The notes under the pieces: generated by a model | Told to the model about the DNA's origin: nothing | Databases searched by the model: none | Seen by the model: only the letters and a program-made list of their open reading frames with translations | NCBI GenBank assembly: GCA_951406725.2 | Contig: OX597832.1 | Coordinates: 11,656,001-11,720,000 of the forward strand | Length of the DNA stretch: 64,000 bases | Origin: Octopus vulgaris | Taxonomy: Eukaryota | Direction of reading: 5' to 3' | Program-made: the position numbers and the translations under genes | Shown: positions 6,247-55,586 of the stretch, piece after piece | How positions within the stretch are numbered: the stretch's first letter is position 1 | Layout: each line of letters opens with the position of its first letter

Positions 6247-8199
6247 CGCGATGGGTGTGTATACGTATATGTATCTAGACATAGATGCACAAACATATAT
6301 GTATGTATGTGTATGAGTGTATGTGAGCGTGTATATTTATATTGAAAAATATCGATATTGACGGTTATATATAATCATTTGGATATGAAATTTCAAGTAG
6401 CAACACATATGGAGACACATTAAAAGTGAATCCTACAATAATATTTACAAAAAATAGAGGTATGCACATGGAAAAAAATGTATATAAAAAACGAAAAGCA
6501 AAAAAACAAAACGATATATATTGGTATAGAAAGACAAATAGAAAATAGTGTTTTGTAAAAAAAAAATGTGTTGATATAGAAAAATTAACAAGTTCATAGA
6601 ATATATATATATACAGACGCAAACACAACCACACTCACACATATCTATATATTCATACACTACACATATAGCTACTGTTGTCGCAAACACAGTTGTGTAC
6701 ATATATATACACGAAGACAAGTCTATACAAACAAACCAAAACACATGCGCTCAAACCGTACACGTACATACGCATACATATATTCGAACACATACATACG
6801 TAGTTAGAAACATTTCTCTTACTGTAAACAGCTATTAGATGCTAATACACACAAACACACACACATACAAACAAGCACACACACACACACGCACAAAAAC
6901 ACCCATACATATAATTTTTTTTATACATGTGTATGTTGATATAGATATAATTATCATATTTGTTTCCAGACATATTGATTGCAAGGTGAATTGTGAACAA
7001 CAAAGTTGTCACACGAAGAGATAATTGTTTTGTTTCCGCGATTTCTTCGAATTTGAATGAAAACATCCTACTTATATATCCTAATATAAGTAACCTTTTT
7101 ATTTGGACACTTTAATAATCTTCTTTGCATTTTCCATATTAACAAACCTATAATACACTCACTGAAGATTATTAGACCTAGCGAATTCAGAACATTTTTT
7201 CATCAAAATATACAGTATAATCGAAAGCAAACTACATTGCTTTAACGTTGAATATAGGTTATATTTTCTTCATATTGTTATAATTTATATATTTTTTACG
7301 AAAGGAAATTATTTAGGGAATATTACTTCTTTTCATTTTTGCACTCAAAGAATATAGATACATGCATGTATGTGGGTGCGTGCTTGTGTTCTTGTTCATG
7401 TGTGTTTGCGTGTATGATGTGTGTGTGTGTGGGTGGGTGTTTGCGTGTTCGATGTATGCATATATATAATATACACATTATATACAAATGTCAATATATA
7501 ATAGACATGTATACAAGGCGTTTGAAAATCCACTCCCTATTTTGAAAAATTAATTTTAAAGTAACCAGGAGACAGTTGATAATTATGATTAATGAGCTTT
7601 TTAATTAAAGATGAAACTTTAGAAAGATGAAATGATATAAATTCACTTTCCAATTAAATATCTAACTTTTCATAATAACTTGGAAAATACAGTTTAGCTT
7701 AGTTATTTTGCATATGTATTGTAAATTGGGTTAATGTATACGTAAATATGCACACACTCACATATTCATATTTTCATACATGCATATATATATGCATACA
7801 GGCATTGACTTATAAATTTTCAGTATACTTAGAAATATATGGTGGAGGCATAACGAAATACAAAATTCTAACGAGCTATTGATATTTATGTAACAATTGC
7901 CAATAGTGTGTTTAATACGTAAAATTGGTATATCCAAATGTATTACTCCGCTCCATTTAGAGATTATTTAAGCAATGTGTTGGTGGATGGTTTATGGGAT
8001 ATATGTGGTACTGAAAAAGGAACAATAAGTCCTGAAATATGTATATACACGTATTTTCTATCTTTTGTCGCATTGTTTACAGAAACGTAAACGAAAGACC
8101 GTACATTTCTGTGTTGGGTCTAATTTCTATAAAAAATCTGTAGCATTAACGTTAAAAAATTACACGCACCAAGAAACACACACATACCATATATATATA

Positions 8200-8635
8200 T
8201 ATAGTTCAAATTTATAGAAAAAATGACGAAGATAGGAGTAGGAACAAGAAGCAAGTGTACTGACGCTCGGAAAAATGGAAAAGTCTTTTACGTTTCTAAC
8301 CTATGCTCTTCGACAGAAAGGAATAAGAGGAAATAAATAGGAAAAAAAAAATGAGGAATGAGCGAGAGGGAGGAGACGGCTGAGGGTGCGTATTTTGGAG
8401 GGATTAGAGCGAATGGTGACACGCAGAAGGTGGTAGGAAGTGGTGCGGAGTATGGGTAGGATGCCAGAGACAGAATGTAAAGTAGGGTGGAAATGGAGGC
8501 GAAAACCTTTGGAAATGAGGTGATGGTGAATGTAGCGACTGAGAATGACAACATGACTACAGAAGCGTATTGTCTGAAAATCAGTAAAGGGAAGATTATT
8601 AGAATGTTGAGATCAGTGGAAAGGAAGCGTTGGGT
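8200..8635 (-). mobile_element. Penelope-like element remnant: N-terminal ORF fragment plus terminal repeat with hammerhead-like motif
   Basis: The minus strand (~8580-8350) reads FQTIRFCSHVVILSRYIHHHLISKGFRLHFHP…ILRTTSYHLLRVTI, resembling the H..FL..C….IPKGF N-terminal motif of PLE ORFs. It is followed by ctgtcgaagagcataggttagaaacgtaaaagac and ends in (TA)n. Confidence 0.65.
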
Positions 8636-9166
8636 TTTTTTTTTGGGGGGGGGATGTGGAGAACGAATGATTTATAATTAAGCATGCTGGAAAAAGGAGA
8701 AGAAAACAGAAAGAGAATAAAGGAAAAAAAAGTAAAGAAGAGTGAAGATGGCAAAGTATTAACGTACGGAGTTTAAAAGTTGAGAAAGTTGAGAAAATTC
8801 AAAATCGTGATGGATTAGAGCGATTTACATCTACGAAAACGACCAGTGTGATATGTGTGTGTGTGTGTATGTATGTGCATATGCATATATATGTTCATAG
8901 ACACACTTATATATATAGAGGGAAAAGGGAGGGAGAAAAGAGTGAAATTGAATTTATTTTCCTTCCAATGTCTTTAACATAACCTGTAATATTACATAAA
9001 ACTTCGTATATGGAAATATATTTAATCAATATCTCCACATCAACATGCAGTATTGAAAAAAAAATATTGCCTTCTAGTAAGTCTGAACACGCCCACTAGA
9101 TTTACAATGAAAGTTGAATGTTTTCCAACTGTAGCGTTCAACAGAAGGAAATCGTTGTATGAATTG

Positions 9167-9727
9167 TTTCATTGTATTTATCTTAAACGACGTCTCACAT
9201 CCAAAAGTGTCACGGTTTCGAATCCGTTAAGTTCCAAGGTTTGGTTTTCTGTGAACAAAACAGTAGAATTTTAAATTCATTTAATACTGCACTTGCTTTT
9301 AACTGGTTATTGGCGTCGAGACTAGAACAAACACTACATCATTCAAATCTTAATGTTCAATTTTCCTCAGGAACATATTTTTATCATGGATGGACGTCAA
9401 GTAGATTTTAAAAAGATCCCCATCGGCAATTTTGTCTTCTTGCTTTCATTGTATTTATCTTAAACGATGTCCCACATCCAAAAGTGACACTGTTTCGAAT
9501 CCGTTAAGTTCCAAGTTTGGGTTTTCTGTAAACAAAACAGTGGAAGCTTAAATTCATTTAATACTGCACTTGCAGTATTGGCTAGGTTATTGGCTAGGAC
9601 AAACACTACATCATTCGAATCTTAATGTTCAATTTTCCCCAGGAACATATTTTTATCACGAATGTTCGCCAAGTAGATTTTAAAAAGATCGTCGATGAAT
9701 CCCCATCGGTAATTTTGTTTTCTTTGC
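9167..9727. repeat. Tandem duplication of a ~280-bp unit (9167-9443 / 9444-9727)
   Basis: Both copies begin tttcattgtatttatcttaaacga and end cccatcgg(c/t)aattttgt…ttgc, with scattered substitutions and small indels. Confidence 0.9.
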
Positions 9728-10307
9728 TTGTGTGACTGCATGGACATTTCTACTTTCGAAAGCAATAATATCGTTGTAGCGATTGATGAATTAGCCAACC
9801 ATCAATCTCTTTTCATCAGTAAAAAAAACAAAAACAAAAAAAAACATGCTTTCTCCTCCCAAGTACTACAGGAAATTGAGATACTTTCGGGCTCTTTTAG
9901 CATTGTTGATAATAGATATAAAAATAAAATGTTTCACTTCAGTTACCCAAATGATTTTCGATAGAGAGCTGACGAAAGGATGTCATTACTTATGTTAAAT
10001 CTGCATATATTTAGTTTTTATATTTTTGCGAATAGGGGGTGCATTGAGGTTTCATCATTTCAATATTGTGTTTATATTGTTTTAGTGCATGCTAATTCGT
10101 TATGGTTTCATTAAATGGTTTCTAAGAGCAGTACTAGTCTTATTTGCTATAGTCGATTTGCTTCCGTGAACGTTTGTACTCGGAAATAAAACCAGTATTA
10201 TTCATTACAGAGAGTGAAATATTTCAGTAGCAGCTAGAATGGCATGAAGTCACGGCGATCTCCTCAATATTAATATGTTTGATTTCTGAGACAGCATATT
10301 TACTATT

Positions 10308-10705
10308 CGTTTCTACTCTAGGCACAAGGCCCTAAATTTGGAGGGAGAGGGCCAGTCAATTACATCGACCCCAGTACGCAACTGGTACTTAATTTATCGA
10401 CCATGAAAGGATGAAAGGCATAGTCGACCTGGGCAGAATTTGAACCCAGAACGTAAAGACAGACGAAATACCTATTTCTTTACTACCCACAAAGGGCTAA
10501 ACACAGAGAGGACAAACAAGGACAGACAAACGGATTAGGTCGATTATATCGACCGCAATGCGTAACTAGTACTTATTTAATCGACCCCGAAAGGATGAAA
10601 GGCAAGGTCAACCTCGGCGAAATTTGAACTCAGAACGTAAAGACAGACGAAATACTGCTAAGGATTTCGCCCGGCGTGCTAACGTATCTGCCAGCTCGCA
10701 GCCTT
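10308..10705 (-). mobile_element. SINE family A, dimeric copy
   Basis: Two bodies joined at gacgaaatacctatttctttactacccac. Imperfect TSD agcatatttactatt / atcatatttacaatt. Confidence 0.9.
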
Positions 10706-11140
10706 ATCATATTTACAATTATAAAAACAATTTCCCTATTCTAGAAAATGCTACATCTTAAATCAATAGATTCTAAAAATCTGCACGCTTCCGGAGAATA
10801 GCACACAGCTTCAACGTTTGATATTTTCAAATAACTATGGAAATGTTAAATTCTATCGATCATTTATATATTCACTGGGTTAAAATAGTTTTGATCACAC
10901 ATGATTGATATGCAATGCTCTGAAGAAAGTTCATCGACTGGAATAATTAACAATCCAGTGCCTTCATTAACAAAGGAAGCCTTTCTTATTTCGTACTTTG
11001 CAACTATGATACGGAAGACCTGTAAATATCTTGTAATTTCACGTGGAATAGATGAACAAATGAGGTCTTTTATTCATGAGAACATAAAAATTCGTGGGTG
11101 TCATTTGATATCGGATTTTCTTATTTCAATATGTTCATAG

Positions 11141-11548
11141 GATGTTCGCAGGAGTGGCTATGTGGTAAGTAGCTTGCTAACCAACCACATGGTTCCGGGT
11201 TCAGTCCCACTGCGTGGCACCTTGGGCAAGTGTCTTCTACTATAGCCTCGGGCCGACCAAAGCCTTGTGAGTGGATTTGGTAGACGGAAACTGAAAGAAG
11301 CCCGTCATATATATGTATATATATGTGTGTGTGTGTGTGTTTGTGTGTCTGTGTTTGTCCCCCTAGCATTGCTTGACAACTGATGCTGGTGTGTTTATGT
11401 CCCCGTCACTTAGCGGTTCGGCAAAAGAGACCGATAGAATAAGTACTGGGCTTACAAAGAATAAGTTCCGGGGTCGATTTGCTCGACTAAAGGCGGTGCT
11501 CCAGCATGGCCGCAGTTAAATGACTGAAACAAGTAAAAAAGAAAGAGG
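11141..11548 (+). mobile_element. SINE family B, full length
   Basis: Near-identical to 3623-4024 and 14032-14443. Confidence 0.9.
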
Positions 11549-12238
11549 TATGTTCAGGAATGCTTTCTAATACAGTGTCACGCTACATCCCTAAATTACT
11601 CGTTCAATTAATCAGCAATGTAAAAGTCAGGGATACGTGTGAATATATTTCAGTAGGCGAATTTTCCTTGTAGGGTTGCACCATGTTTGTATCTGCATGT
11701 TTGAGTACAATTTCATGTCATGTGAAAAGGATTCTCCTGAACTAACGAACTTTGTCTAAAAGAATGTGCAAAAACGCATGCACTCGCACAATACACACTC
11801 ACACAAGCACGTACACACGCACAAACACACACATATAATTACTTTTGAGACTAGTGAATATCGAAACACGCATGCAGTTATGAGAATTTTTATGTAAATA
11901 TTGAATTTAAAAATGCTTATGATAAAAAGTCAAATTCACCCAATGGTCTAACGCCATGTCTACATATGGAATGGCTTCACGTGCAACGAGCTGTCTTCGA
12001 CATTTTGATTCCGAAAGGGCTTTTCAATCGAACATTTACATAATGTCATCTATAGATTCAAAGTCTACTACTCCTAAGATGAACTAAACACTCACTGTAG
12101 TGGACCTTCGGTTCCTCTACCCCCTATAAAAGAAAGAAATCCGAAGGTTGAGCCTCCAAACGTGCCCCCTTAAAGCCTGGAACTTTTCAGCATCTCCTTG
12201 TGTGTGTGCTTATATATACGTATACACATACATATATG

Positions 12239-12301
<63 letters not shown>

Positions 12302-12642
12302 CGTGCGTGTGTAGACTGTAAATGATGATAATAGTAATAGCTTTTAACTTTATAAGCGTCAGGGCACAGTGAATGCTTATAAGCTTAAATCTTATAATTT
12401 TTATTAGTTTACATATATATATTCCTATATCTATTTATATAGATATTCATATATAAATTCGTATATATATATATATATGGGTGTGTGTGATTGTGTATAG
12501 AAGAATATATTAATAAAAAGAATTCCAACCTTGTCTGATTTTCACGTTTTATTTACAATCTTATAATGATATATTATAAGATAATATATTATAATTGAAT
12601 AAAATAAAATGAAATAGTAGAATGTTAAATATTCATTCTGAT

Positions 12643-12687
12643 TGAACTAGTACTTTCATGCATTGAATTCTGCAATCTTCGGGTTCA
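12643..12687 (-). ncRNA. Minimal type I hammerhead ribozyme-like motif (PLE type)
   Basis: Minus strand: tgaac CCGAAGA ttgca gaattcaa tgcat GAAA gtac TA gttca. It has a 5-bp stem I (tgaac/gttca), stem II tgca/tgca, a palindromic GUAC loop and a UA cleavage site. The core has U4>C. Confidence 0.65.
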
Positions 12688-12736
12688 TGTAGTAGTGTTG
12701 ACAGTCATGCTTCACAAATATATATGTATATATATA

Positions 12737-13080
12737 TTTACTTATTTTCTGTCATTGTTCCTTTCTGTGTTCTTTTCTGTGGAAGAGCGTAGGCTCGAAA
12801 CGTTAAAGACTTTTTCACTAATACATCTATTTGTTGTCTACACCACCTGTCTTCGTCTTTTATACATACATGCATATACATATGCCATATACAGACGCCA
12901 TGATAGATCGTTAGCCACTACACACATTTTTTTCTCCTTGTTTCTCTTTGTCCCTTTCTGTAGAAGAGTGTAGGCTTGAAACGTAAAATACTTTTTCTAT
13001 TCCTCAGCGTTATACTAATACATCTGTTTATTTTGTACACCACCTGTATTCGTCTTTGGTGTTTTTTCGAAAACTCTCGC
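12737..13080 (+). mobile_element. Two tandem PLE-terminus fragments carrying the gaagagcgtaggctcgaaacg motif
   Basis: Copies at 12737-12862 and ~12880-13080, same family as 8200, 13472, 15610 and 55400. Embedded in (TA)n/(CA)n. Confidence 0.7.
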
Positions 13081-13210
13081 TGCATATACATATATATGTA
13101 TACACGCACGCACGCACACACACACACGTATATATAAGGCGTTACTCAGGCACTCAAGTATGAGGCAACCGTATGTTATAGAAGAAACATTGTATCTTCA
13201 TTTAATACAG

Positions 13211-13260
<50 letters not shown>

Positions 13261-13415
13261 CGTGTGTAGACTGTAAATGATGATAATAGTAATAGCTTTT
13301 AACTTTATAAGCGTCAGGGCACAGTGAATGCTTATAAGCTTAAATCTTATAATTTTTATTAGTTTACATATATATATTCCTATATCTATTTATATAGATA
13401 TTCATATATAAATTC

Positions 13416-13468
<53 letters not shown>

Positions 13469-13471
13469 TAT

Positions 13472-13620
13472 ATTTACTTATTTTCTGTCATTGCTCCTTT
13501 CTGTGTTCTTTTCTGTGGAAGAGCGTAGGCTCGAAACGTTAAAGACTTTTTCACTAATACATCTATTTGTTGTCTACACCACCTGTATTCGTCTTTGGTG
13601 TTTTTTCGAAAACTCTCGCT
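13472..13620 (+). mobile_element. PLE-terminus fragment (chimera of the two upstream copies)
   Basis: The 5' part matches 12737-12850 and the 3' part matches 13040-13080. Confidence 0.7.
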
Positions 13621-14000
13621 GCATATACATATATATGTATACACGCACGCACGCACACACACACACGTATATATAAGGCGTTACTCAGGCACTCAAGTAT
13701 GAGGCAACCGTATGTTATAGAAGAAACATTGTATCTTCATTTAATACAGTATATATATATGTGTGTGTGTGTGTGTGTGCAAGTGAAATTATACACGGTT
13801 ACATGTGCACACAGATGTATGGATAAAACAGTACTTACCGTTATATGCAAACAAGTCTACACATATGATTATATACAAAATATATCCTATAAATACTTGC
13901 TTATACACAAATATATTTATATACGTGTATGTTTATATATATATATGTACACATGTGTGCGTGTATATATATATATATTTATATATATACACACATATGA

Positions 14001-14031
<31 letters not shown>

Positions 14032-14032
<1 letters not shown>

Positions 14033-14194
14033 GCGCAGGAGTGGCTGTGTGGTAAGTAGCTTGCTTACCAACCACATGGTTCTGGGTTAATTCCCACTAC
14101 GTGACACCTTGGGCAAGTGTCTTCTACTATAGCCTCGAGCCGACGAAAGCCTTGTGAGTGGATTTGGTCGACAGAAACTGAAAAACGCCTGCCG

Positions 14195-14243
<49 letters not shown>

Positions 14244-14443
14244 TTGTGTGTCTCTGTTTGTACCCCCAACATCGCTTGACAACCGATGGTGGATTGTTTA
14301 GGTCCCCGTAATCTAGCGGTTCGGCGAAAGGGCCCGATAGAATAAGTACCAAGCTTACAAAGAATAAGTGCTGGGGTCGATTTGCTCGACTAAAGACGGT
14401 AAACCAACATGGCCGCAGTCAAATGACTGAAACAAGTAAAAGA
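14032..14443 (+). mobile_element. SINE family B, full length, inserted in (TA)n
   Basis: Starts ggcgcaggagtggctgtgtggtaag, ends gactgaaacaagtaaaaga, with (TA)n on both sides. Confidence 0.9.
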
Positions 14444-14444
14444 T

Positions 14445-14482
<38 letters not shown>

Positions 14483-15439
14483 CGCATTTGTCTTTGAGTG
14501 TGTGCATATGCAGAAACAAACAGATATAAATATATACACATCACTGGGATGCATTCATGTAATATGTTGTAGTACACAGAATATTACCAATCACAAACAC
14601 GAACTGTTTATTTGGTTTAGTTAGAAGAGAAATACTCGACACGTAAAGACCACACATCTTAACCAAATAAGAGTAACATTTACTTTCTGGAACGTATCTT
14701 GACCAACATCTTAAGATTTAATATTCTTATAATGAACTCATTGTAGATGCGTTGCGTGTGCAGAATGGTAATTCGGTAACAAATCATTTCGCAATTAACC
14801 TCAAATTTATTCAGGCTCTTCGTGGTTTAGAAACCAGGAAATGTTTATATCAAATATAATATATTTATATATACGTTAAAAATATTGTCTCAACAGACAA
14901 TATTGATTTTTTTACCAGTATTCACATTAACATATTAGATATATATGTATGTATGTATATACATATATATATGTACGTCTTTTAACAAATGGTATGTATG
15001 AGTGTCGTGTGTCTATTTGTGTGCGTGGGTGTATGCTTGCGTGTATTTTTATAAATTAGGACGCTGAGAGGATTATATAAAATAAATCAATTTGAAATTT
15101 TTTTTCTGAGTTCGAATTAAACCGACGTTAAATTAACCTCTCAACGTTTCTAGATTGATAAAGTGAAAAACATAAGAAATGACTGGGATACCATCCTCTT
15201 TTTTCTCATCTGCTTCCTCTAATATATTTTTACTTTGGACTACTCTGTGAAATTTGGTATGCGATGTAATTTTATATGACATAAGGTGTTACAAATAATC
15301 TCGCTACGGAACACATGTAGTATTATCCACAATATCCATTCGCTCCGTGTTTTATTAATATCTATTTATCTATCTATCTAGCTATCTAACACTCCTTCTC
15401 TATTTCTTTATGAGTGTGTGAATATATATATTTATATAT

Positions 15440-15479
<40 letters not shown>

Positions 15480-15567
15480 TAAGGAAAAATATTCTGCATT
15501 TTTAAAAAAATTTTTCCTTACTTATCATTTCTCCACGTGCGGTCAACACAACCCCACCATTTATTGA

Positions 15568-15609
<42 letters not shown>

Positions 15610-15613
<4 letters not shown>

Positions 15614-15757
15614 CTTATTTATTTTCTGTCCTTGATCCTTTCTGTGGAAGGGCGTAGGCTCGAAACGTTAAAAACATTTTTCACATCCCGAGCGTTAAAC
15701 TAATACATCTGTTTGTTGTCTATACCTGTCTTCGTCTTTTGTTTTTTTGTGAATTCT

Positions 15758-15760
<3 letters not shown>
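15610..15760 (+). mobile_element. PLE-terminus fragment between two (TA)n tracts
   Basis: ctttctgtggaagggcgtaggctcgaaacgtt…cccgagcgttaaactaatacatctgtttgttgtc. Confidence 0.7.
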
Positions 15761-15798
<38 letters not shown>

Positions 15799-16762
15799 TT
15801 AGGGTTTTGTCTCTAATAATCTCTAAATCTGATTTTTTTCCCTGTAAATTTGGATTTATTCCCTAATATTTATTATATATATATATAATCAGTTATAAAT
15901 ATTCATAGATAGATATATAGATATTGTAGTACTGCAATTACTCGCTGTTTTCATCATTCTTCGTTCATTAGACAACACAAACTTGAGACCAGTAAGCTTG
16001 GTTCTTTATATGAAATATAAAGAAAACACAAAATAATTGATGAAACCTGCAACGCAGTAAACAGAAAAAGTAGTTAAGGAGGAAGTAATTCAAAGCGAAA
16101 AGTACGAAGAAAATAATTAAAAAATAATCAATAAAATATGCACGGGAATGTGATTAATTGCTAAAACACAAAAGAGGATACACAATAAACAGAATATATA
16201 TCAATATATGCCTTTGTGAGTCTAATTTATGTCTGTACATAATAAATGGTTCTCGGTCAGAATTTTTGATCTTGTGTGTTCAGCTGTTCGCTCTACAAAC
16301 CTTGCAGACTGTTTGTGTTATATGTAATTGACAGTGTAAAACAAAGGTAAGAGTAACAGTAATGTAAAGCTCTCTCTGTGAATATGTGTGACAAGGATGG
16401 CTATTGGAATTACAAGTAAAATCCGTCTGGCTGAAATTTGTTTTATTCACCAATTTTGGCTTCGCTCCAGACTATACTAACAATTATCCAAGATGCAACG
16501 TAGAAGATTCGAGACCGATATCTCATGATTTCGAAGTGGACATGTTAAGTATTCAGTACAACTCGACCTGGTCTTCCTGTCTCTCCCTCCCTACCTCTCT
16601 CTCTCTCTTTATCTTCTCTCTCTCTTTATATGTAATTACATTCGTATATATATATATATATATATGTTTACAAACTTATATATGTGTACACATAAGCACG
16701 TGTATAATATATTCACTTTTGTTGATATATAAATGTAACTCTGTACATATGTATACATATAC

Positions 16763-16800
<38 letters not shown>

Positions 16801-16818
16801 CATGTAAGCACAAACTCG

Positions 16819-16853
<35 letters not shown>

Positions 16854-16905
16854 TCCTATTTATATATGAATGCATGCTATATGTATACAACTATCCATCC
16901 ATCTA

Positions 16906-16963
<58 letters not shown>

Positions 16964-17459
16964 AAAGAGAAGGGGGAAACTTATTCATATATTCAACAAA
17001 ATACCTAACTTTATCCTCAAGTGACGTACATTAACTTACAAGCAAATAAATATGATATTTAAAACTATGTAAATTCAATATATCAAGGAACTATAAATAT
17101 GCATATATATATAAGGCCTTTAATTAAGCAATTAATCAATTAATGGCTGCTTCTAATTATTATTTAATTAAACATAGTTTACATAATGCAATAGCAAATA
17201 ACAAATGATTACTAGAACAATGGAAAATGAAATCAGCGACATATGCGTAATTGTGTTTATGCGCGGTTTCATGCGCGCGTGTCCCTTTGTGTATGCAACT
17301 CACTTAAAAGTAATGACCAATAAATCAGAATCCGAAGAATGTTGTATATATATTTCCTGATTCTATTACAGCTACAGTATTCTAATAAATATGATAAATA
17401 CCATAATAACAGCAATTTAACATTTGTATTAATTACTATACTACATATATGATTTTTCT

Positions 17460-23559: not shown

Positions 23560-23976
23560 TATTTCTTTATTGCTCACATGGGGCTAAACGTAAAGGGGAC
23601 AAACAAAGACTGACAATGGGATTAAGTCGATTACATCGACCCCAGTGCGTAACTGGTACTTAATTTATTGACCCCGAAAAGATGAAAGGCAAAGTCGACC
23701 TCGGCGGAATTTGAACTTAGAAGGTAACGGCAGACGAAATACATATTTCTTTATTGCCCACAGGGAGCTAAACACAGAGGGGACAAACAAGGATAGACAA
23801 ACAGCTTAAGTTGATTATATCGACTCCAGTGCATAACTGGTACTTAATTTATCGACCCTGAAAGGATAAAAGGCAAAGTCAACCTCAGCGGAATTTGAAC
23901 TAGGAACGTAACGGCAGACGAAATACCGCTAAGCATTTCGCCCAGCGTGCTAACGTTTCAGCAATCTCGCCGCCTT
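23560..23976 (-). mobile_element. SINE family A, dimeric copy
   Basis: Two bodies. Perfect 19-bp TSD atggaaatcaaacgtttct at 23541-23559 and 23979-23997. Confidence 0.92.
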
Positions 23977-53769: not shown

Positions 53770-54520
53770 TTGATAGACTATCAGATTTATCGCTTTCTCG
53801 TACAATACAATGGTGAGTCTGTTTGAAGTAACATTCAAAGCAGCAGCAAACCAGGTCGGCCTTTACTGCAACGAGAGTAAGACAGAGTTTATCACGACCT
53901 CTTCCAAGTTCACTGAACTTAAATCGCTCAGTAATATATCAATCAAAAACGTTGACGACTTCAAATATATTGAATCACACATAGCAGTCTCTCAAAAGAG
54001 CCTTCGCATCTGCAAAGCTCTTGCTTGGAATGCATGTAACAGACTTGATAAGATCTGGCACTCAAACCTTCCACACAAGTTAAAAGTTCAAACATTTAGA
54101 ACACTTATTGAGCCGGTCTTTCTCTACGAATCAGAGACTTGGACCTTATTGGCTCTCTTATAAAAGCAACTAGGGTGAACCAATCTGCTCAGAAAGATCT
54201 GGAACATCAGTTGGAGATCACACCGAACACTTATTAACATCTACAGAAATCTGATACAAATATCCCTCAAGCTAAAACAGAAACGGCTACAATTTGCTGA
54301 CGACTGTCATCGAGCAGAGAAAGAGGTTATATCATCTCTGCTCTTATGGCATCCTTCTGGAAGCGTTTTCTGCAGGAAACTGACATTTCCAGATACTATG
54401 TCTCGGGAGTCAGTGCTGGATATTAGAGATCTGAAAACTAAAATGAGGGACCGTGTAGTGTGGAAAGGTATTGTCAATGGAGATCCGACGAACCATAGGT
54501 TGGTCAAAGGATGATGATGA
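53770..54520 (+). mobile_element. RTE-clade LINE, 5'-truncated 3' fragment (RT C-terminus), decayed
   Basis: ORF 53810-54163: VGLYCNESKTE…VDDFKYIESHI…KALAWNACNRLDKIWHSNL…KVQTFRTLIEPVFLYESETWTL. It continues past a stop as LLRKIWNISW…RLQFADDCHR and ends in a (GAT)n tail. Confidence 0.9.
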
Positions 54521-55400: not shown

Positions 55401-55586
55401 TTATTGATTGCTAGCCACTAAACCTTTTTCATTTTCTCTCTCTGCTTATTTTACGTGTGTTACATTCTGTTGAAGAGCGTAGGCTCGAAACGTAAAAGAT
55501 TTTCTCACTTCCCGAGCGTAAAACTAATACATCTGTTTGTTGTTTTCACACCCGTCTTCGTTTTTTGTTTTCTTTTTGTAAATCCC

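Follow-up and report, generated by a model that had tools for sequence, protein, structure and literature searches.

The window, by which we mean the whole 64-kb stretch of Octopus vulgaris DNA that was analysed, contains exactly six matches to a hammerhead-type motif in a pattern search that tolerated up to six mismatches (Table 1), and these are the six copies picked out in an earlier note on this sequence. Every one of them sits inside a stub of 120-190 bp with TA or CA repeats on both sides. The base at the position equivalent to N7 is G, A, G, G, U and C at 12777, 12958, 13513, 15642, 55467 and 8316, respectively, and thus all four bases occur there, as had been stated. At 13513 the stub is a chimera of local origin, with a 5′ part that shows ~97% identity to the 12777 copy and a 3′ part that follows the 12958 copy, so the six window motifs represent five independent insertions.

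The 4-bp stem I that the earlier note ascribed to the motif is found in three copies, at 8316 and, with one G-U, at 12777 and 13513, but is reduced to 3 bp at 12958 and 15642 and to 2 bp at 55467. The G-U pairs of stem II at 12958 and 15642, which had been read as retained pairing, are better described as decay transitions than as covariation: the two changes at 12958 are C>T transitions by CpG decay, in line with the suggestion that such decay could account for part of the variation, the change at 15642 is a single transition, and none is compensatory. Several window copies show plain decay. The 8.3-kb copy does adjoin an N-terminal fragment of a Penelope-like element (PLE) reading frame, as had been noticed. 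A Pfam search of window 8291-8671 returned no domain match, and the ORF piece was later confirmed by tblastn, with window 8630-8340 aligning to residues 21-117 of the element's reading frame at 62% identity (E 5e-24); taken with the adjoining stub, it represents either a copy with an internal deletion or an insertion that abuts the stub. An Rfam covariance-model search of window 7000-17000 gave 123 matches at E<=10, none of them to a hammerhead family, which bears out the expectation that standard searches would miss the motif.

Two further repeats were observed in the window. Broken frames at 53777-54511, which we take to be RTE-like, resemble the C-terminal part of a LINE reverse transcriptase. 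At 23560-23926, a SINE-like repeat found again in many loci forms 184-bp units in tandem; it presumably resembles octopus SINEs.

Table 1. Positions in the window of the hammerhead-type motifs and of the element fragments that carry them
Feature	Position	Strand	Remarks
C3 of the six motifs	12777, 12958, 13513, 15642, 55467; 8316	+; - (8316)	Pattern search
Hammerhead-type motif, copy 1	12773..12808	+	From sequence; numbering by comparison with A6 sister elements
Copy 1, stem I	12773-12776 (5′ strand); 12805-12808 (3′ strand)	+
Copy 1, C3	12777	+
Copy 1, U6	12780	+
Copy 1, stem II	12785-12796	+
Copy 1, GAAA	12797-12800	+
Copy 1, ACGU palindrome	12800-12803	+
Copy 1, H17 (U)	12804	+	Predicted cut 12804/12805
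5′-truncated PLE 3′ stub with copy 1	12738..12861 (approximate)	+	Short internal deletion; between TA-rich repeats
PLE 3′ stub, N7=A subfamily	12894..13081 (approximate)	+	C3 12958; two CpG C>T in stem II
Chimeric stub from local tandem duplication	13474..13620 (approximate)	+	C3 13513
PLE 3′ stub between two (TA)n arrays	15611..15760	+	C3 15642; A>G in stem II
PLE 3′ stub between microsatellites	55402..55586 (approximate)	+	C3 55467; stem I down to 2 bp
PLE 3′ stub, old subfamily	8203..8350 (approximate)	-	C3 8316; G10.1-C11.1 lost (decayed)
N-terminal PLE ORF piece, residues 21-117	8340..8630	-	tblastn; joined directly to 3′ stub

The parent Penelope-like element

Exact matches to the 25-nt pattern with U at position 6 (U6) number 17,610 in the 2.8-Gb genome, versus 0 for its reversed control. 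Full-length copies were sought from an entry point at locus L022, where an endonuclease reading frame lies just upstream of the motif; 150 of 18,676 candidates were scored and the 20 loci with the longest open frames were fetched. In 13 of these 20, motifs in sense orientation flank the ORF on both sides, a partial tandem arrangement that forms the pLTRs, with a motif spacing of 4,444-4,580 bp in 12 of the 13; in L102 the upstream motif belongs to another subfamily. The copies compared with L096 over 1,900 nt are 99.4-99.9% identical to it (19 of 19), indicating that the U6 family was recently active.

The ORF matches RVT_1 above the cut-off (E 1.3e-7), its GIY-YIG matches (E 0.0064 and 3.6e-4) fall short of the curated cut-off, and the motifs DKG, YIDD and IIYCI..YIGQT can be read directly in the translation. 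The parent is a PLE with a single ORF in which the reverse transcriptase (RT) precedes a C-terminal GIY-YIG endonuclease (EN+). This settles the identity of the parent, for which elements other than PLEs had been named in advance as a refuting outcome, and both the PLE terminus and the minimal type I hammerhead anatomy are supported. The window repeats are 3′ stubs of this abundant, recently spreading element. Some 105 nt past the predicted cut, the unit stops at a TATAT junction leading into (TA)n, and the stubs are bounded by TA repeats, matching the described lodging in (TA)n.

Between RT and endonuclease the ORF carries a C-X4-C-X2-C linker that matches CX2-5CxxC, a feature of Neptune elements, although Nematis elements also have a zinc finger in the linker (Craig, 2021; PMC8557442). 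With the PLEs described there the octopus element shares the C-terminal GIY-YIG, the CX2-5CxxC linker, the partial tandems and the targeting of microsatellites. It would be Neptune-type by its linker and microsatellite targets, an assignment made beside a protein tree that holds no named Neptune references. The Poseidon PLE of Anolis (Frangieh, 2024; PMC11167929) likewise has a pLTR hammerhead upstream of the element end and a motif that is intact in the genome; it differs in belonging to the Penelope/Poseidon clade and in the placement of its motif over the start codon, the octopus motif lying ~740 nt upstream of the ATG.

Some structural peculiarities were also seen. At L096:3788-4085 (-) no stop codon directly follows the endonuclease, and the ORF continues for ~100 codons into a pyrimidine-rich tract, the length of which varies between near-identical copies. 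The UAG|G of the loop was considered as a 3′ splice site following a pyrimidine tract but gained no support, there being no such joint among the contig joints listed. An inverted pLTR arrangement occurs at L011:1501-1672, where two motif copies 170 bp apart lie tail to tail on either side of a TA run.

A variant of the minimal hammerhead

Minimal hammerheads (min-HHR) in the pLTRs of metazoan PLEs were described with the consensus CUGANGAH, G-stem II-C, GAAAN, palindrome and NUH (Cervera and De la Pena, 2014; PMC4209133). The octopus motif shares with them a U-rich 5′ flank, a short stem I, stem II, an extra nucleotide after A9, the G10.1-C11.1 pair, GAAA and a palindromic CG-U-H in place of stem III, as well as occurrence in both pLTRs and a predominance of solo truncated copies. 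The extra A after A9 is already part of that consensus and, contrary to the earlier note, is no deviation, which leaves A6>U as the only one: in the core C3 U4 G5 A6 N7 G8 A9, every position agrees except A6. We therefore class the motif, which is homologous to the PLE minimal hammerheads, as a variant and not as a member of the consensus. The core change described in PMC4209133 is U3-A8, whereas here it is U6. An alternative register that would restore A6 through an insertion was rejected, since it breaks stem II and the A6 sister motif aligns base for base.

The U6 deviation itself stands firm, with 17,610 exact motifs carrying U against 723 with another base. Among the first 100 of these 723, counted by eye, C occurs 72, A 20 and G eight times, a spectrum that looks like decay. 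A natural A6U hammerhead was found nowhere in the literature searched, although alignments beyond that scope may show one: the text supplements of PMC3088659 held no match (its figures S6/S7 may be pictures), and nothing was found in the consulted text of the review PMC6765202 or of a 2026 preprint. A natural precedent is the A6C hammerhead of phage Bcep176 (Perreault, 2011; PMC3088659), which also has a pyrimidine at core position 6, but the base is C and not U, and it is a self-contained phage ribozyme as opposed to a minimal motif present in tens of thousands of copies.

The A6 sister family and the direction of change

A canonical A6 pattern gave 7,866 matches in the genome versus 24 for the control, mostly from one sister family with the same extra A, the same GAGC/GCUC stem II, but a 3-nt loop. 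Its ORF shares 62-66% amino acid identity with the U6-family ORF, and outside relatives from metagenome contigs share 52-54%. All five C3-G8 motifs found in those relatives have A6, and they come from 4 of 80 related loci; one further metagenome locus has a U3-A8 motif with A6. In the protein tree, which kept 23 of 24 rows (L345 was dropped for coverage under 0.35), the U6-family ORFs form a group (support 85) whose sister is the A6 family, and the metagenome elements branch outside. A decayed A6 motif is present in one row of the U6 family. Because the A6 sister and the outside relatives keep A6, U6 is likely derived, and it likely arose once, with the few motifs of the A6 outgroup as the basis for polarity. 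The variant is lineage-specific, as had been proposed, within the Octopus vulgaris genome and near relatives. Stem I differs with pairing kept, being CUUU/AAAG in this genome versus CGCU/AGCG in the metagenome relatives.

Several observations accompany this comparison. At L293:327, in a metagenome contig, a related PLE ORF is accompanied by a minimal hammerhead of the U3-A8 type whose stem II measures 7 bp. A metagenome U3-A8 match with U at position 6 does not have the extra-A layout and looks like chance. A YGAGCG box ~25 nt past the predicted cut (L096:7655-7670 (-)) is retained in the U6 family and the A6 family alike, in spite of the divergence of the 3′ ends around it. The box may be a protein-binding or promoter element; a role as an anti-ribozyme strand for stem II was rejected, as it persists where stem II differs and shows no covariation.

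Constancy of the motif

For a comparison among subfamilies, 179 distinct copies were clustered by their flanks, and five subfamilies of at least five copies each (117 copies) were retained; smaller clusters (62 of 179 copies) were left out. Among the five majority sequences, 2 of 36 motif columns vary versus 75 of 147 flank columns (Fisher p 1e-7), where the sample is largely core-anchored and the flank count is inflated by low-complexity misalignment. The two variable columns are exactly N7 (U, A, U, G, C) and H17 (U, A, A, U, A), and position 17 is never G. Given the core-anchored sample and the noisy flank alignments, copies were re-sampled with a flank-only profile over 684 kb, and U6 was present in 17 of 18, the remaining one having a deletion at position 6. 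C3, G8 and G12 are kept across U6 subfamilies whose ORFs differ by up to ~18% in amino acids. This selection-like invariance of the motif beside diverged flanks points to selection for the hammerhead fold. The GUAG loop is also invariant among subfamilies, which catalysis alone does not require.

The stems are invariant and not covarying among the main U6 subfamilies. Matches with both bases of pair 2 changed number 44, against 3 for the control; in many of them the pairing is lost, and full compensation of the stems is confined to a few singletons (L152, L156, L165). In the oldest subfamily, position 6 is about three times as variable as other U positions, with a base other than U in 17 of 100 copies versus 18 of 300 at three other U positions (p 0.002; counts made by eye), and the overall U/C/A/G distribution there is ~376/71/21/1. 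A flank tree, itself poorly resolved, showed no clear clades of A6 and C6 copies and required 15 changes versus a shuffled mean of 18.2, a value as low being reached in 10 of 200 shuffles. The excess may reflect either relaxed constraint or a mutable site.

An unrelated repeat family (L153, L160, L162 (1501-1526) and two more) contains a look-alike, CUGUUGAA...CGAAACG, with a mismatch in stem II, no stem I and G at position 17 in two of three. It is probably a chance resemblance or a decayed distant family.

Folding and traces of cleavage

Computed folding of the monomer is not better than that of shuffled sequences (z -1.4 to +1.0), and the computed active dimer lies ~7.5 kcal/mol above two monomers. 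This penalty is alike for U6 and for A6 loop-4 sequences (7.5 vs 7.3 kcal/mol). U6 permits a predicted monomer helix that buries the core through U4-G16.2, G5-C15.2 and U6-A15.1, for which the mean pair probability is 0.60 in 33 U6 sequences versus 0.10 (14) and 0.00 (23) in A6 sequences.

The 5′ truncations show no accumulation at the predicted cut over and above what TA microhomology gives: 29 of 74 start there, and one downstream TATAT site takes ~25 of the first 100 of 192, both counted by eye from different anchors. Some 5′ junctions (L128, L133, L139, L144) duplicate or invert the first 10 nt past the predicted cut; these are likely microhomology slips of the RT. Every copy has an intact cut site with ~105 nt beyond, so the templates were uncut or re-ligated at that site. 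This agrees with the findings of Frangieh (2024; PMC11167929) and would also fit selection for a slow ribozyme.

Discussion

We regard the motif as an A6U minimal type I hammerhead, present in both pLTRs, that is likely a slow, dimer-only and probably protein-aided ribozyme, and we give this reading as a whole a probability of about 0.58. Known systems are in keeping with it: cleavage by PLE minimal hammerheads is weak and confined to multimers (PMC4209133), the hammerhead of the Anolis PLE depends on the element's own protein while insertion in vitro can do without it (PMC11167929), and natural A6C hammerheads are slow in Mg2+ but active (PMC3088659, PMC7151607). In a tandem transcript, two ACGU palindromes would form stem III of a domain-swapped dimer, and cutting after GUH would take place only in that state, probably with help from the element's protein. 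The A6U change would lower the rate, such that most transcripts would stay uncut or be re-ligated and could serve as templates for reverse transcription. Reverse transcription may then start ~105 nt downstream of the cut at the TA-rich junction and leave 5′-truncated stubs in (TA)n, the window copies being, on this mechanism, inert by-products of reverse transcription and insertion.

A possible though unlikely alternative is that the fold has been kept and catalysis lost, U6 having switched the ribozyme off and left a structured signal for protein binding, packaging or positioning of the RT. Comprehensive mutagenesis of one type III hammerhead found that all single changes in the CUGA turn are low in activity (PMC9901934), so A6U may be near-dead, and the independence of Anolis insertion from cleavage (PMC11167929), the lack of accumulated truncations at the predicted cut, the core-burying helix of U6 monomers and the invariance of the GUAG loop beyond catalytic need all fit a silent motif. 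What such a signal does not predict is that N7 and H17 should be the sole free columns, with H17 avoiding G as the catalytic rule demands, or that C3, G8 and G12 should be retained across such diverged subfamilies; the equal dimer penalty of U6 and A6 loop-4 sequences also speaks against a fold that has been switched off. The loss could, further, have been neutral and have hitch-hiked in one master copy, with the motif now a dead passenger. Retroelement families do amplify whatever their master copy carries, and the window copies are plainly decaying, but a motif that stays fixed except at N7 and H17 through five successive subfamilies already makes this reading highly improbable.

The opposite departure, in which U6 is fully tolerated and the motif cuts like its A6 sister, because position 6 is relaxed in PLE hammerheads that a protein assists or is rescued by the GUAG loop or another metal ion, appears improbable to us. 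The U6 family is still spreading, it outnumbers A6 by 22,331 to 7,866 matches (to different patterns), A6C hammerheads reach near-normal rates in Mn2+ (PMC3088659), and the extra variability of position 6 in the oldest subfamily would fit a site under little constraint. However, a mutable site would equally explain that excess, the A6 and C6 copies do not form clades, and published changes at position 6 slow cleavage in Mg2+ (PMC3088659, PMC7151607). Returning to the slow, dimer-only ribozyme, a more specific and rather doubtful extension is that U6, by weakening the active site and also closing the monomer core in an inactive helix, makes cleavage protein-gated and template-sparing, and that this let U6 outspread its A6 sister.

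The literature leaves open why PLEs retain their hammerheads (PMC8557442). The octopus genome contains two sister families that have stem II in common but not the base at a core position regarded as almost immutable, and of the two it is the non-canonical U6 family that is more abundant and still spreading. In this one genome, descriptors built on CUGANGA miss tens of thousands of motifs. The cleavage rates of U6 and A6 and their effects on retrotransposition would bear on whether PLEs select for weak cleavage. If U6 hammerheads do still cleave, in the protein-gated manner just described, position 6 would serve as a rate dial for PLE hammerheads in general, with the U6/A6 pair as a natural experiment on why these elements keep their hammerheads.
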